From: Planctomycetota bacterium
GTDB taxonomy: Bacteria > Planctomycetota > PLA2 > JAEUHO01
Direction of reading: 5' to 3'
DNA length: 64,000 nt
Assembly: GCA_965222115.1 (NCBI GenBank)
Contig: CBDCTJ010000007.1
Coordinates: 2,688,001 to 2,752,000 of the forward strand
The notes under the pieces were generated by a model. The model was not told the DNA's origin and did not search any database. It was given only the letters and a program-made list of their open reading frames with translations. Positions within the stretch are counted from its first letter, which is position 1. Every line of letters begins with the position of its first letter. Below, in pieces: positions 4,889 through 63,155 of this stretch. A program made the translations under genes and the position numbers.

Positions 4889-4968
4889 GCCGTCACCCGA
4901 TACCCGTCAGCCGACACCCGGACTCCACTGTGAGCATCCGAAGATCGATTCGCATCGAACGGTGGACG
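4889..4968 (+). repeat. solo composite repeat copy E (degenerate)
   Basis: gccgtca-cccgata-cccgtca-gccgaca-cccggactccactgtgagcatccg..gattcgc..gtggac; matches the copies at 42720, 43422 and 44129. Confidence 0.8.
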
Positions 4969-39897: not shown

Positions 39898-39957
39898 GTT
39901 GATCTTGACGTGGAACGTTGCCCGCGAGTCGGCACGGAGTAAAGAGGAAGCTCGGAT

Positions 39958-40175
39958 CGTCCACCGTTCGATGCGCAACGCGCAGATCAAAGATCTGCTG
40001 GTGCTTACTCAGGGTCTTCGCGCAAATGGCAATGCCATTTGCTCTTGACGTCCACGTTAAAGCGGCGCGAGTCGTTCATCGAATGCTCAAACCTGAGTCA
40101 GGGTAACGGGCGACGGAAACTTGGGAAACACGCCGATTGGTCCAGCGCGATCGGTACGCGCGGACGCTGCGATGG
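39958..40175 (-). repeat. gene-less degenerate copy H of the composite element with flanks
   Basis: colinear with 55929-56165, e.g. ggtgcttactcagggtcttcgcgcaaatggc..gccatttgctcttgacgtccac and tccagcgcgatcggtacgcgc. Confidence 0.85.
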
Positions 40176-42576: not shown

Positions 42577-42719
42577 GGTATCCCTACTCTACATCTCAGG
42601 GCGTTCAAGCGCCACGCCTTCAGCATGGTTGTGCGTTCGGGCACGATCTGATAGCAGAGCGCGGCTTGAGCGACTGTGCGTGGTGGAGCAGTTTGCGTTG
42701 ACGTCCGATGTCCCGCTTT

Positions 42720-42840
42720 CCCGTGACCCGTGACCCGATACCCGGACTCAAGTGTGAGCGTCCGAAATTCGATTCACGCCAGCTCGTGGACGTGGACGTG
42801 GACGTGGACGTGGACGTGGACGTGGACGTGGACGTGGACG
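42720..42840 (+). repeat. composite repeat copy A: 3 heptamers, hairpin core, (GTGGAC)x9
   Basis: cccgtga cccgtga cccgata cccggactcaagtgtgagcgtccg..gattcacgcc; GTGGAC x9 at 42786-42839. Confidence 0.95.
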
Positions 42841-42841
42841 A

Positions 42842-43216
42842 TCAAGGCTCGTCGAACCTTCGTTGAAGCACGAACAACATAGCGGCGGATCGCTCTAGTA
42901 TGTTCATGACACCTGAGATTGCGGCCTCGCTGGCGAGTCCGAGTAGTAGAGCCTGATGTAGAGCGGCAATGGCCTCGGTGCATTCGGCGTGTGCGATGTC
43001 GTACGCTTTGCGTTTCTCGGCTGGCCGTCGTTTCGAGAGTCCTTCGGCGACGTTTAGGGCAACGCTGATACTTGCGCGCCTGAGTTGATCGGCGAGCTTT
43101 GCGTGGCCACGAGGCCATGCACCGCAGATTGCTACGCACTCGACCGACGCGGCCTGCGAAGCACGGTAGACATCGAAGCGTTTGAGGTATTCGAGCGTGG
43201 AAGATGCGCTTGTCAT
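42842..43216 (-). CDS. four-helix-bundle protein (23S rRNA IVP / Avd-like)
   Basis: FDVYR, LADQLRRAS.SVALNVAEG, AYDIA..EC.E. Confidence 0.88.
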   Translation of the reverse strand: MTSASSTLEYLKRFDVYRASQAASVECVAICGAWPRGHAKLADQLRRASISVALNVAEGLSKRRPAEKRKAYDIAHAECTEAIAALHQALLLGLASEAAISGVMNILERSAAMLFVLQRRFDEP

Positions 43217-43368
43217 GATGGAACTCCAGCGTGAAGGGATCGCAAGCCGTTTGCTCGCGTGTGCCCTTCACAAAAGAGCCGAAGGCGAAGGAGGGCACAC
43301 GCGAGCGGGTCGTACAAAGGAAGCCCTGCGCAAATGCGACAACTTGTTCTCAAGCTGGAGTTCCATCA
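43216..43368 (-). promoter_or_regulatory. structured leader sequestering the SD of the four-helix gene
   Basis: 15-bp perfect IR 43216-43230/43354-43368; inner 15-bp IR 43253-43267/43292-43306. Confidence 0.8.
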
Positions 43369-43421
43369 CAAGCGGCGCCCGCGCGTACCGGTCCGGTCGC
43401 GCATGAGTTACCGATGGCCTG

Positions 43422-43536
43422 CCCGGAATCCGATACCCGTCAACCGTTACCCTTTACCCGAAACCCGTCACCCGGACTCAAGTGTGAGCGTTCGATGGTC
43501 AATTCGCGCCGGTCTAACGTGGACGTGGACGTCAAG
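43422..43536 (+). repeat. composite repeat copy B: 7 heptamers, core, (GTGGAC)x2
   Basis: cccggactcaagtgtgagcgttcg at 43471; gtggacgtggacgtcaag. Confidence 0.92.
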
Positions 43537-43576: not shown

Positions 43577-43731
43577 GAACTGTCTGCTGTGTGACGTGAA
43601 GGCGCACTGGGCAACACCCTTTGGGAAGTGCTACGTGCATGCCCCATTCGCCATGAGGGCGAGGGCACGCACTCGCATTCCCGCGGGTGTTTCCTCGTGG
43701 AGCTTCTCGTATGTCACACAGCAAACAGTTC
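43577..43731 (+). promoter_or_regulatory. structured leader pairing over the start codon of the four-helix gene
   Basis: 43577-43597 pairs with 43711-43731 (one G-U, one mismatch); nested aacaccc/gggtgtt, gtgcatgccc/gggcacgcac, tcgcc/ggcga. Confidence 0.75.
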
Positions 43732-44097
43732 TCGGTTTCCTCCACAGCTAGTCGGCTTGAGCGATTCGACGTGTATCGAATCGCGCGGCGTGCCGCTGCC
43801 AGTATTCACCAGCTTTGTGGATCGCTACCGCGAGGCAACGCCGAGCTTGCAAGCCAAGCTCGACGCGCCTCGACCGCCGTCGTTCTCAACATCGCTGAAG
43901 GCATCGGGCGCGCTGGCGCAGGCGCCAAGCACCGTTCGTTCTCCATCGCTCGCGGCGAGTGTGTCGAAGCCGCTGCGGCACTCGACCTCATGGATGCAAT
44001 GGGCATCCTCGCCAGCGCCCACGCCGCACCGACGCTTCGCGACCTTGACCGCGTTCGCGCGATGCTGAATGCGCTCATCCGCCGTTGGAGGGAGTGA
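43711..44097 (+). CDS. four-helix-bundle protein (23S rRNA IVP / Avd-like)
   Basis: LERFDVYR, LASQARRAS.AVVLNIAEG, FSIARGEC.E; GGAG SD. Confidence 0.9.
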   Translation: MSHSKQFSVSSTASRLERFDVYRIARRAAASIHQLCGSLPRGNAELASQARRASTAVVLNIAEGIGRAGAGAKHRSFSIARGECVEAAAALDLMDAMGILASAHAAPTLRDLDRVRAMLNALIRRWRE

Positions 44098-44128: not shown

Positions 44129-44257
44129 TCCGTCACCCATTGTCCGTCACCCGTTACCTGTCACCCGTTACCCGGACTCCAGTGTGAGCGTCCGATAGTC
44201 GATTCACGCCTGCTCGTGGACGTGGACGTGGACGTGGACGTGGACGTGGACGTGAAC
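44129..44257 (+). repeat. composite repeat copy C: 6 heptamers, core, (GTGGAC)x6
   Basis: cccggactccagtgtgagcgtccg at 44171; gattcacgcc; GTGGAC at 44216-44251. Confidence 0.95.
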
Positions 44258-44297
44258 GCGCAAATCCGTGCCGGGATCACACGTGCGATCTGCAATA

Positions 44298-44365
44298 TCC
44301 GAAAGCCGTTACCCGACACCCGTCCCCCGGACACCCAACTGAGCATCCGACGAACGATTCGCGCC
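44298..44365 (+). repeat. degenerate composite repeat copy D
   Basis: 4 heptamers, cccggac..tgagcatccg, gattcgcgcc. Confidence 0.75.
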
Positions 44366-44421
44366 GCACGCATCGATGGGTGACGGGGACTGTCCCCCCG
44401 CGCGGGGAGGCTAGGAGCCTC

Positions 44422-45354
44422 ATGATTGATCGCCGCCCTTCCGAATCCAGTACGCGCGCGCGTGTTGCGCAGCTCGATATGCGACTTGCCCTTGAGGGCA
44501 GTCAACTTGTGCACGGTGATTGTCTGGAAGTCATGCAGCGCCTGCCGGATGCGTGTTTGGATCTGATTTACATCGACCCGCCGTTTTTTACCGGCAGCAA
44601 AAAGTTGGGACCGCGGGACCTTGATGGCGAAACGCACGCGGCTCAATTCGATGATCACTGGCCCGGGGGATTGACGGCCTATTTGAGCTGGCTCATGCCA
44701 CGCATTGCAGATATGCATCGCCTGCTAAAAGACACCGGGTCCATGTATATCCATCTCGACTGGCATGCAGTGCATTACGTCAAGGTCGAGGCCGATCGCA
44801 TCTTTGGTTACGACAACTTTCTCAATGAGATTGTGTGGCTCTATGGACTGGGGGGGAGTTCCCCGCGCTACTGGCCGCGCAAGCACGACACGATTTTGTG
44901 GTACGCCAAAAATGCCAAACAACACTACTTCGTGGCCGATCGGATACCGGCCACATCGCAGCGTCTCAAGGGGCAGACCAAGAAGGCGCCCGACACGTGG
45001 GATATTCCAGCACTCAACAATATGTCTCGCGAGCGCTCGGGGTATCCCACACAGAAGCCGGAAGCATTGCTTGAACGCATTGTTCGAAGCTCGTGTCCCG
45101 AGGACGGACTGTTTGCTGACTTCTTCTGTGGCTCCGGTACGTCGTGCGTGGCCGCCGAGCGATTGGGACGCAAGTGGATCGCATCGGACACATCGAGTGA
45201 TGCGATTCAAACCACCGAGTCGCGACTGCATGCCTACCTTGCCGAACAAATTGCCAAGCGCCATCCCGGCCATTTGACGCGCGCCAAGGGGGCGACTTCG
45301 TCACGTCGAAAACGGCGCGTTCCGCTTCCGAGTTTCGTTGTCTTACGGGCGTAG
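44422..45354 (+). CDS. N6/N4 DNA methyltransferase, beta class (orphan)
   Basis: GDCL, IYIDPPF, YPTQKPE, DFFCGSGT; AGGAG SD. Confidence 0.93.
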   Translation: MIDRRPSESSTRARVAQLDMRLALEGSQLVHGDCLEVMQRLPDACLDLIYIDPPFFTGSKKLGPRDLDGETHAAQFDDHWPGGLTAYLSWLMPRIADMHRLLKDTGSMYIHLDWHAVHYVKVEADRIFGYDNFLNEIVWLYGLGGSSPRYWPRKHDTILWYAKNAKQHYFVADRIPATSQRLKGQTKKAPDTWDIPALNNMSRERSGYPTQKPEALLERIVRSSCPEDGLFADFFCGSGTSCVAAERLGRKWIASDTSSDAIQTTESRLHAYLAEQIAKRHPGHLTRAKGATSSRRKRRVPLPSFVVLRA

Positions 45355-55916: not shown

Positions 55917-56014
55917 AAGGGCGGTTGCTCGTCCACCCTTCGGTGCGCACTGCGCGGATCAAAGATCCGCCGGTGCTTACTCAGGGTCTTCGCGCAAATG
56001 GCAAAGCCATTTGC

Positions 56015-56113
56015 TCTTGACGTCCACGTCCACGAACCGGCGTGAATCGAATATCGGACGCTCACACTTGAGTCCGGGTGACGGATTTCGGGTAACGGGT
56101 GATGGGTGACGGG
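56015..56113 (-). repeat. composite repeat copy F: 5 heptamers, core, (GTGGAC)x2
   Basis: reverse complement cccggactcaagtgtgagcgtccgatattcgattcacgccggttcgtggacgtggacgtcaag. Confidence 0.95.
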
Positions 56114-56172
56114 AGCTTGGAATGCGCGACCGGTTGCTCCAGCGCGATCGGTACGCGCGAACGGCGCTTGTA

Positions 56173-56321
56173 ATGGAACTCCAGCTTGAGAACGGGGTGT
56201 CGCGATCACGCGGACTTCTGTTTGAGCGACCCGCTCGCGTGTGCCCTCCCTCGCCTTCGGCTTCTTTGTGAAGGGCACACGCGAGCAAACGGCTTGCGAT
56301 CCCTTCACGCTGGAGTTCCAT
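56173..56321 (+). promoter_or_regulatory. structured leader sequestering the SD of the four-helix gene
   Basis: 13-bp IR 56173-56185/56309-56321 (contains GGAG); inner 15-bp IR 56233-56247/56272-56286. Confidence 0.8.
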
Positions 56322-56322
56322 C

Positions 56323-56697
56323 ATGACAAGCGCATCTTCCACGCTCGAATACCTCAAACGCTTCGATGTCTATCGTGTGTCGCAAGCCGCGGCGGTCGAG
56401 TGCGTCGCAGTCTGCGCCGCATGGCCTCGGGGCCACGCAAAGCTTGCCGACCAACTCCGGCGCGCAAGCGCCAGCGTTGCACTCAACGTTGCAGAAGGAC
56501 TAGCGAAACGCCGCCCCGCCGAGAAGCGCAAGGCATACGACATCGCCCACGCCGAGTGCACCGAAGCGATCGCTGCGCTACATCACGCCCTTCTCCTCTG
56601 GATCGCGAGCGAGCACGCGACCTCTCGAGCCATGAATAACCTAGAGCGCGCCGCCGCCATGCTATTCGTGCTGCAACGCAAGTTTGGCGATCCTTGA
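56323..56697 (+). CDS. four-helix-bundle protein (23S rRNA IVP / Avd-like), close paralog of 42842-43216
   Basis: 124 aa; 106/124 identical to the 42842-43216 product by manual alignment. Confidence 0.88.
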   Translation: MTSASSTLEYLKRFDVYRVSQAAAVECVAVCAAWPRGHAKLADQLRRASASVALNVAEGLAKRRPAEKRKAYDIAHAECTEAIAALHHALLLWIASEHATSRAMNNLERAAAMLFVLQRKFGDP

Positions 56698-56699
56698 CG

Positions 56700-56809
56700 G
56701 TCCACGTCCACGTCCACGTCCACGTCCACGAACCGGCGCGCATCGAATATCGGACGCTCACACTTGAGCCCGGGTATCGGGGTACGGGTAACGGGTAACG
56801 GGTGACGGG
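56700..56809 (-). repeat. composite repeat copy G: 5 heptamers, core, (GTGGAC)x5
   Basis: GTCCAC x5 at 56700-56729; cggacgctcacacttgagcccggg. Confidence 0.95.
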
Positions 56810-63011: not shown

Positions 63012-63066
63012 TGCTGAGTCTTTGCTGATAGGCTGAGCATAAAAATCTACTACTTGCAACGCCTTT

Positions 63067-63155
63067 GCCGATATTCGTCACCCGGACTCAAGAGTGAGCG
63101 ATCGGTGATCGATTCACGCCACAACATCAAGAGCAAATGGCTTCGACATTTGCGC
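63067..63155 (+). repeat. solo composite repeat copy I
   Basis: cccggactcaagagtgagcgatcgg..gattcacgcc..tcaagagcaaatgg..catttgc. Confidence 0.88.

Follow-up and report, generated by a model that had tools for sequence, protein, structure and literature searches.

A long hairpin over the start codons of multi-copy PF05635 genes in a Planctomycetota bacterium

Proteins of the PF05635/TIGR02436 family are widespread and often multi-copy, and have been linked to rRNA intervening sequences (IVS), DGRs and CRISPR loci; to our knowledge, no function has been established for them. The Avd protein of DGRs works with, and binds, structured DGR RNA. Among mRNA leaders, 5′ untranslated stems can hide a ribosome binding site and be opened by RNase III or by a protein, and among repeated DNAs the repetitive extragenic elements (REP/BIME) and single-strand transposons (IS200/IS605) have orientations that follow replication. 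For the 23S rRNA IVS of Coxiella, the published account describes ends that form a 28-bp stem, which RNase III cuts with the removal of a putative Shine-Dalgarno (SD) sequence, and tandem heptameric repeats of variable number 5′ of the S23p ORF (PMC4990558). In Coxiella this homologous ORF is considered to be unexpressed (PMC4990558). A further article likens PF05635 to the DGR protein Avd (PMC10053308).

Here we describe a locus that shares a protein family with these IVS and that sits among protein genes. The window is the whole stretch of DNA analysed, 64,000 nucleotides from a Planctomycetota bacterium, and it holds the following PF05635 genes:

43711..44097, plus strand: type A PF05635/TIGR02436 four-helix-bundle gene, 128 aa (Pfam E 8.1e-19; TIGR02436; PDB 2GSC)
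42842..43216, minus strand: type B PF05635 gene, 124 aa (Pfam E 1e-15)
56323..56697, plus strand: third PF05635 copy of the window, of type B and 124 aa (Pfam E 1.5e-15)

The type A protein is a member of both families, scoring 68.3 bits against PF05635 (E 8.1e-19, cut-off 33.8) and 70.1 bits against TIGR02436 (E 1.6e-19, cut-off 24); it is arginine-rich, and its closest solved structure is XCC0516 (PDB 2GSC, E 4.5e-7). Its ATG at 43711 belongs, by a correction made here, to the frame of the ORF at 43687-44097 and not to that at 43628-44068. The genome as a whole (G000; 4.55 Mb in seven contigs) carries 18 intact PF05635 genes, which lie without exception in the 2.27-2.85 Mb interval of contig C7 and by start position and sequence comprise eight of type A and ten of type B. 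Proteins of the two types are 43% identical and form sister clades within the genome (SH-aLRT 98, in a quick maximum-likelihood tree that is provisional). Singly or in pairs, the cassettes are scattered across 0.6 Mb, in intergenic sites beside housekeeping genes such as leuS and recJ; their neighbours in the window are ORFs for a DNA methylase, RecJ, LeuRS and a BNR-repeat protein. Among the copies, column conservation rises at the base of a hairpin and falls at the stop codon, so the repeated unit is hairpin plus ORF. Elsewhere in the assembly, contig C6 (48,116 bases) has a G+C content of 39.7% against 55-59% in the other six contigs, and may be a plasmid, a phage or mis-binned.

The hairpin before the type A gene consists of these parts:

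43577..43731, plus strand: type A leader hairpin, made of 5′ arm, nested helices, apex, SD and 3′ arm (MFE fold; 8/8 type A copies)
43577..43597, plus strand: anti-start 5′ arm GAACTGTCTGCTGTGTGACGT, complementary to ORF nucleotides 1-21 (19/21 Watson-Crick)
43635..43672, plus strand: apical stem-loop GTGCATGCCCC..ATTCGCCATGAGGGCGA..GGGCACGCAC, with a motif in common with type B
43700..43703, plus strand: likely SD sequence GGAG, 7 nt 5′ of the ATG (sequence, fold)

An initial annotation of this DNA had proposed that an upstream segment pairs with the first 21 nucleotides of the ORF and encloses three nested stems. The pairing is borne out: the 5′ arm makes 19 Watson-Crick pairs, one G-U pair and one C-A mismatch with 43711-43731, that is, with the ATG and the next six codons, and when the type A upstream region was shuffled 2000 times no shuffle matched 19 pairs in 21. 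All three stems (aacaccc/gggtgtt, gggaagtgc/gcattccc and gtgcatgccc/gggcacgcac) are present in the MFE fold, a single long hairpin of -90.1 kcal/mol when 43577-43733 is folded, in which the GGAG occupies an internal loop between helices of the 3′ half. Dinucleotide shuffles of the same leader average -53.2 +/- 4.0 kcal/mol (z -9.26), with 0/200 equally stable, and the hairpin is kept in all eight type A copies.

The other two PF05635 genes of the window have leaders of their own:

43207..43374, minus strand: type B leader hairpin of the divergent neighbour gene (MFE -84.4 kcal/mol, z -8.04)
56165..56332, plus strand: type B leader hairpin of the third copy (MFE -87.4 kcal/mol, z -7.36)

The comparison with shuffles had been set beforehand, and the three leaders proved far more stable than their controls (z -9.26, -8.0 and -7.4); the observed hairpin is real and far beyond chance. 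A length of about 155 nt, which had been said to be common to the leaders, agrees with the hairpins of roughly 155-165 nt that lie over the SD/AUG region in 18/18 copies. The two types reach the start region differently. The point of closure is +21 of the ORF in type A and +8 in type B, where the basal helix contains both GGAG and ATG and the 5′ arm holds a 15-nt exact complement to -16..+21, the SD-AUG region (0/2000 shuffles). In sequence, nhmmer leader profiles run on the genome recover their own kind, the type A profile its eight leaders and the type B profile its ten plus one fragment of 94 nt, and neither profile finds any leader of the other type at E values up to 1. The sequence turnover between the leaders is therefore real. 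The 94-nt piece, at C7:2443861-2443954, is the 5′ half of a type B leader standing alone without a PF05635 gene, and is probably the remnant of a lost cassette.

An apical motif had been described as shared by all of the leaders; the pattern TGCCC..TTCGCC..GGGCAC is exact in two of the three in the window, the third having CTCGCC for TTCGCC, and the exact pattern occurs in 0/100 shuffled windows. The loop edge YGA(A)GGGC keeps a fixed distance from the ATG in this genome, at -51 in 5/5 type A and at -54/-53 in 7/7 type B leaders examined. From structure and motif conserved despite turnover, the initial annotation had gone on to a recognition site. The conserved architecture stands, with 43% protein identity between the types and hairpins in 18 of 18 copies; the apex is a putative recognition site.

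Structural conservation can also be sought in the substitutions among copies, and here the covariation within each type is thin. Identity among copies is 94% in type A and 92% in type B, so that most pairs never vary. RNAalifold pairs changed on both sides number 2/63 in type A (alignment pairs 13/158 and 22/150) and 3/58 in type B; at one of the type A pairs the 3′ partner is a non-synonymous His-to-Tyr codon change that is matched in the 5′ arm. Mismatches occur in several copies of both types. Where a single side of a pair has changed, G-U and A-C result about equally often, and the antisense strand is on average 3-5 kcal/mol more stable than the sense strand. Folding energy and G-U counts therefore favour neither strand, nor RNA over DNA, and selection on the one is not told apart from selection on the other.

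Near-identical copies, pairs that are mostly invariant and mismatches in several copies are what would be expected if the palindrome were a by-product, inherited through recent duplication of a selfish or decaying gene and without present function, and the Coxiella ORF, considered unexpressed, would fit such a history (PMC4990558). We regard this as improbable, given that all 18 ORFs are intact, that the two types retain a start-enclosing hairpin although their proteins are 43% identical and their leaders are beyond detectable similarity, and that the same logic recurs with compensatory changes in other genera, as set out below.

How firmly the start region is held was assessed by the energy needed to open positions -18..+12. 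Across the 18 leaders it ranges from 22.6 to 34.0 kcal/mol, averaging 28.0 in type A and 29.0 in type B. As controls, 200 further long ORFs with an SD, taken from this contig, need 15.0 +/- 4.2 kcal/mol, and nine of them reach 22.6. Opening energy was used in place of unpaired probability, a poor discriminator in this GC-rich genome: the mean unpaired probability over -15..+5 is 0.31-0.42 in type A against a control mean of 0.38 and leaves type A unseparated from the controls, because the type A SD lies in an internal loop and a GC-rich genome pairs almost anything. A scan near the leader predicted no sigma-70-like promoter, a point against the explanation that follows, in which transcription would begin upstream of the 5′ arm. 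Public sequencing runs listed for the locus included none from RNA.

The explanation that we prefer, with a probability of roughly one half, is that the hairpin is a cis-acting 5′ leader of the PF05635 mRNA which locks translation of the gene, and whose apex is recognised by a protein or by RNase III. The far 5′ end of the transcript would pair with the start codon and first codons in type A, or with the SD and AUG in type B, and the further helices stacked on top would prevent ribosomes from loading unless the structure were cut or opened. The apical stem-loop (GCCCY ... YGA-RGGGC) would then be the handle for a trans-acting factor. This factor could be RNase III, as at the 23S IVS stems that go with the same gene family, or else the Avd-like PF05635 protein itself, which would make a feedback loop. 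We infer, in other words, that the sense-strand RNA acts, that it represses translation, and that the reader of the apex is one of these two candidates. Whatever the details, the hairpin is probably a conserved control or processing signal, uncatalogued so far.

Relatives of the locus were sought in 40 genomes of the same order. Close homologues of the gene are present in eight of them, with 18 in G000, 17 in G026, 12 in G044, five each in G013 and G003, three in G042, two in G001 and one in G043, and shorter hairpins of the same logic stand 5′ of homologues in five other genomes of the order. One form in G026 (‘type C’) repeats the logic of type A in wholly different letters, its 5′ arm being an 11-nt exact complement to codons 2-5 followed by an anti-SD. 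Shuffles produced a start-region lock as good as that of type C in 5/2000 cases, compared with 0/2000 for types A and B. A second form (‘type D’), a hairpin of about 85 nt found in G026, G003, G044 and G043, has an anti-SD that pairs with the SD, and its flanking bases differ and compensate between genera, e.g. GGCCUCCAGG/CCUGGAGGCC against GUUCCUUCAGG/CCUUGGAGGAAC. Covariation in type D was counted within G003 alone (3/31 pairs changed on both sides among four leaders), a MAFFT alignment of G003 with G026 having misplaced the outer stem. Hairpins of this kind were absent from the more distant homologues in G038, G033, G035, G017, G004 and G022 and from one of those in G001, and a wider contig search returned five related loci (35-53% identity, in MAGs labelled Kofleriaceae, Sandaracinaceae and Deltaproteobacteria) without a clear equivalent. 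The same architecture in a different sequence is thus found both within the genome and across genera.

The apex is the part of the hairpin that is conserved in sequence across genera. Fourteen apical modules from relatives were aligned. Over 14 pairs, 93.9% of the cells can pair, a share that falls to 37-56% once the partner is slid; three of these pairs covary and five are invariant, and the edge of the loop is a constant YGA-GGGC. The YGA(A)GGGC edge lies at -37 to -40 in 4/4 leaders of G003, 3/3 of G044, 1/1 of G043 and 1/4 of G013, and in 0/7 of G026, which has GUGGGGCG in its place and a near-identical apex in both of its paralogue types. A covariance model built from these 14 modules, with no G000 sequence (R1), matches five of the 40 genomes (G003, G026, G044, G043 and G013), the very genomes known to carry this gene clade; the tie between hairpin and clade is exclusive. 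Its distinct sites number 34 with strands merged, 14 of them the model-building set, and 27 lie directly 5′ of a PF05635 gene, the others being three second tandem hairpins, two contig ends and two sites with no listed gene. In a sample of the phylum (151 genomes, 137 genera) R1 matched one genome, G026. Tandem apical hairpins precede some PF05635 genes of G026, 147-205 nt apart (C29:281-338/453-510; C68:714-773/919-976; C39:67642-67700/67789-67846).

For G000 itself the correspondence is looser. Searched genome-wide, R1 has no match at the leaders; in a 60-kb search at the 18 loci, type A apices score 13-14 bits (E 0.5-0.9) and type B apices 8-11.5 bits, values that chance matches also attain, and the type A leader of the window has a weak match at 43628-43678 (13.5 bits). 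The G000 apex resembles that of its relatives in design and, it seems, weakly in sequence, a similarity that is not statistically secure. Conservation of the apical motif beyond the genome therefore holds as far as a related module 5′ of homologues elsewhere, and reaches the G000 apices with just 8-14 bits from R1. The initial annotation had named what would count against it, namely stability no better than that of shuffles and a motif absent from the leaders of homologues; the leaders came through this check, and a related apical module was found 5′ of homologues elsewhere.

A conserved apex might instead mark the hairpin as a product, a stable RNA released by RNase III or another nuclease that forms a particle with the Avd-like PF05635 protein and has a role beyond its own gene. 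The module conserved across genera, with 5/14 pairs invariant and its YGA-GGGC loop edge, would suit such an RNA, as would the near-identical apex of both G026 paralogue types, the arginine-rich type A protein and the published likening of PF05635 to Avd (PMC10053308). Such a particle is decidedly unlikely, however: the cassettes have no linked reverse transcriptase or other partner gene, and the hairpin has coding sequence at its base, as suits a leader more than an RNA of its own.

The surroundings of the cassettes raise a different possibility. Each cassette is bracketed by copies of a polar element composed of (GTNACCC)n heptamers, a core of about 40 nt and (GTGGAC)n hexamers (2 to 33 units), which in the window are placed as follows:

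42714..42840, plus strand: polar element 3′ of the type B gene, 9 GTGGAC units
43423..43530, plus strand: polar element between the two divergent genes (repeat families D1-D3, genome census)
44130..44260, plus strand: polar element 3′ of the type A gene, 6 GTGGAC units
44299..44377, plus strand: solo copy of the polar element
56020..56113, minus strand: polar element 5′ of the third copy, inverted (repeat family D6)
56700..56809, minus strand: partner polar element of the third copy
4890-4968 and 63059-63120, plus strand: further polar elements

The core occurs 32 times in the genome at up to four mismatches, and 30 of these copies lie on C7 between 2.275 and 2.894 Mb; the polar elements keep to a region of about 0.6 Mb that surrounds the terminus (C7 2.27-2.94 Mb). 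Cores are on the plus strand in 22/24 cases left of 2.756 Mb and on the minus strand in 6/6 right of 2.81 Mb, and the hexamer arrays behave alike (plus in 19/20 to the left, minus in 4/5 to the right). Cumulative GC skew is lowest at 0.58 Mb and peaks at 2.76 Mb, and the strand switch of the polar elements therefore coincides with the inferred terminus. Type A genes share the direction of the polar element, 8/8 being co-directional with the inferred fork, whereas type B genes run opposite to the element, 9/10 being head-on with the third copy of the window as the exception; four A-B pairs are divergent neighbours, and G026 has similar divergent pairs of its own two types. Flanking repeats of the relatives differ in sequence but are of the same kind, with periodic G-tract repeats and arrays of hexamers. 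The G-rich strand of the heptamers could form G-quadruplexes.

Other repeats and genes adjoin these elements. A repeat of ~85-100 nt (D5), at 39957-40057 and 55929-56029, carries two small hairpins, GCGGATC..GATCCGC and GCAAATGGC..GCCATTTGC; modules of its type also lie beside several other C7 cassettes and often abut hexamer arrays. A third short module (CCCGCAAAAAGTGCCGGGTG..) adjoins the heptamers in several copies. Past the type A cassette, a gene for an N6/N4 DNA methylase (PF01555, E 1.8e-46; 44380-45354, plus strand) lies directly 3′ of the solo polar element.

Clustering and orientation of this kind are typical of DNA that is mobile or coupled to replication, and they leave a role for the hairpin at the level of DNA as an unlikely but live alternative. 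The hairpin would then be an inverted repeat at which a mobile PF05635 cassette ends or recombines, with the overlap of the start codon secondary. One form this might take is a hairpin extruded from single-stranded DNA at replication and read by a recombinase or an HUH-type enzyme. Much of what was described above would agree with this: a repeat unit sharply bounded from hairpin base to stop codon, 18 copies in one genome with a patchy distribution (8/40 genomes of the order), intergenic sites beside leuS and recJ, a strict replication-linked orientation (A 8/8 co-directional, B 9/10 head-on) with flanking elements that switch at the terminus, folding energy without strand preference, and extra tandem hairpins in G026 that lack a gene of their own. 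On the other hand, no mobilising enzyme lies beside any copy, the sole strong Y1 transposase match being 0.86 Mb from the nearest cassette, and three or more unrelated sequence forms place a hairpin 5′, over the start region, which a pure recombination site does not need. No pair of empty and filled sites was recovered. When contigs of four sequencing runs were compared with the locus they broke at the repeats, and three joints proved to carry the spacers of other paralogues by cross-mapping, so that the joints are uninformative on excision or polymorphism.

A wider synthesis, which we offer tentatively and consider unlikely as a whole, would treat the cassettes as the free-living form of a selfish element otherwise known just as ORF-bearing 23S rRNA IVS. 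Mobile units of hairpin plus Avd-like gene would spread between polar repeats in step with replication, the hairpin serving both as nuclease or recombinase handle and as translation lock, and the protein binding the apical loop. Spread in step with replication, if true, would explain the strict orientation and the clustering at the terminus.

A start-enclosing hairpin tied to one PF05635 clade is a concrete handle on these proteins. From it one would expect post-transcriptional gating, an apex with a specific reader, and kinship with the rRNA IVS stems cut by RNase III. With polar repeats that switch at the terminus, the locus is also a candidate for studying the replication-coupled spread of small cassettes.

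With respect to catalogued RNAs, Rfam 15 gave no match at the gathering threshold in the window (rRNA included), around the leader or at the loci of the relatives; below threshold, RF01670 scores highest over the leader, with 14.6 bits where 45 are required, and the hairpins of relatives match just miRNA-precursor models, also below threshold. No description of a structured leader of PF05635/TIGR02436/S23p genes was found in the literature searched. Two candidate identifications were rejected. An integron cassette would have an imperfect inverted repeat (attC) at its 3′ end and belong to an array beside an integrase, whereas this hairpin lies at the 5′ end over the start codon and the cassettes, alone or in twos, are spread over 0.6 Mb. 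A DGR was rejected on its reverse transcriptases, since the seven PF00078 matches of the genome include none in the window and form multi-copy sets of equal score typical of mobile introns. Six reverse-transcriptase frames (C3:81659; C7:881482, 1004494, 1984989, 2631845 and 3037923) form two sets of near-equal score (515 aa and 445 aa) that look like multi-copy elements of group II intron type, and one frame is about 1.4 kb from a type B cassette.

Among known systems, DGR Avd has the four-helix-bundle fold family in common with these proteins, and differs in that the cassettes are multi-copy and stand alone with no linked reverse transcriptase. REP/BIME and IS200/IS605 elements resemble the flanking repeats as short intergenic repeats with small hairpins and a replication-tied orientation; unlike them, the polar element of G000 has the order heptamer array, core and hexamer array (up to 33 units), is restricted to about 0.6 Mb near the terminus and has no linked Y1 transposase. 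Leader stems that hide a ribosome binding site likewise pair a 5′ segment with the SD/AUG and have a very high opening energy, but the G000 leader is unusually long (~155 nt, about 60 pairs), belongs to a repeated cassette and has a conserved apex.

Closest in several respects is the 23S rRNA IVS with an S23p/PF05635 ORF of Coxiella burnetii and Leptospira, with which this locus has in common the protein family, a stem of great stability at the SD/AUG and heptamer repeats nearby (PMC4990558). The stem of an IVS is formed by complementary ends around the whole ORF, whereas the G000 hairpin closes after 21 nt of the ORF in type A or at +8 in type B; an IVS sits in the 23S rRNA gene (helix 25 or 45), whereas the G000 element has protein genes as neighbours and no rRNA in the window; and, unlike an IVS, it exists as 18 dispersed copies of two paralogue types. 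If it is a cis-acting lock, the leader would be the free-standing counterpart of the 23S rRNA IVS stem; it falls outside the IVS class, yet plausibly works like an IVS.
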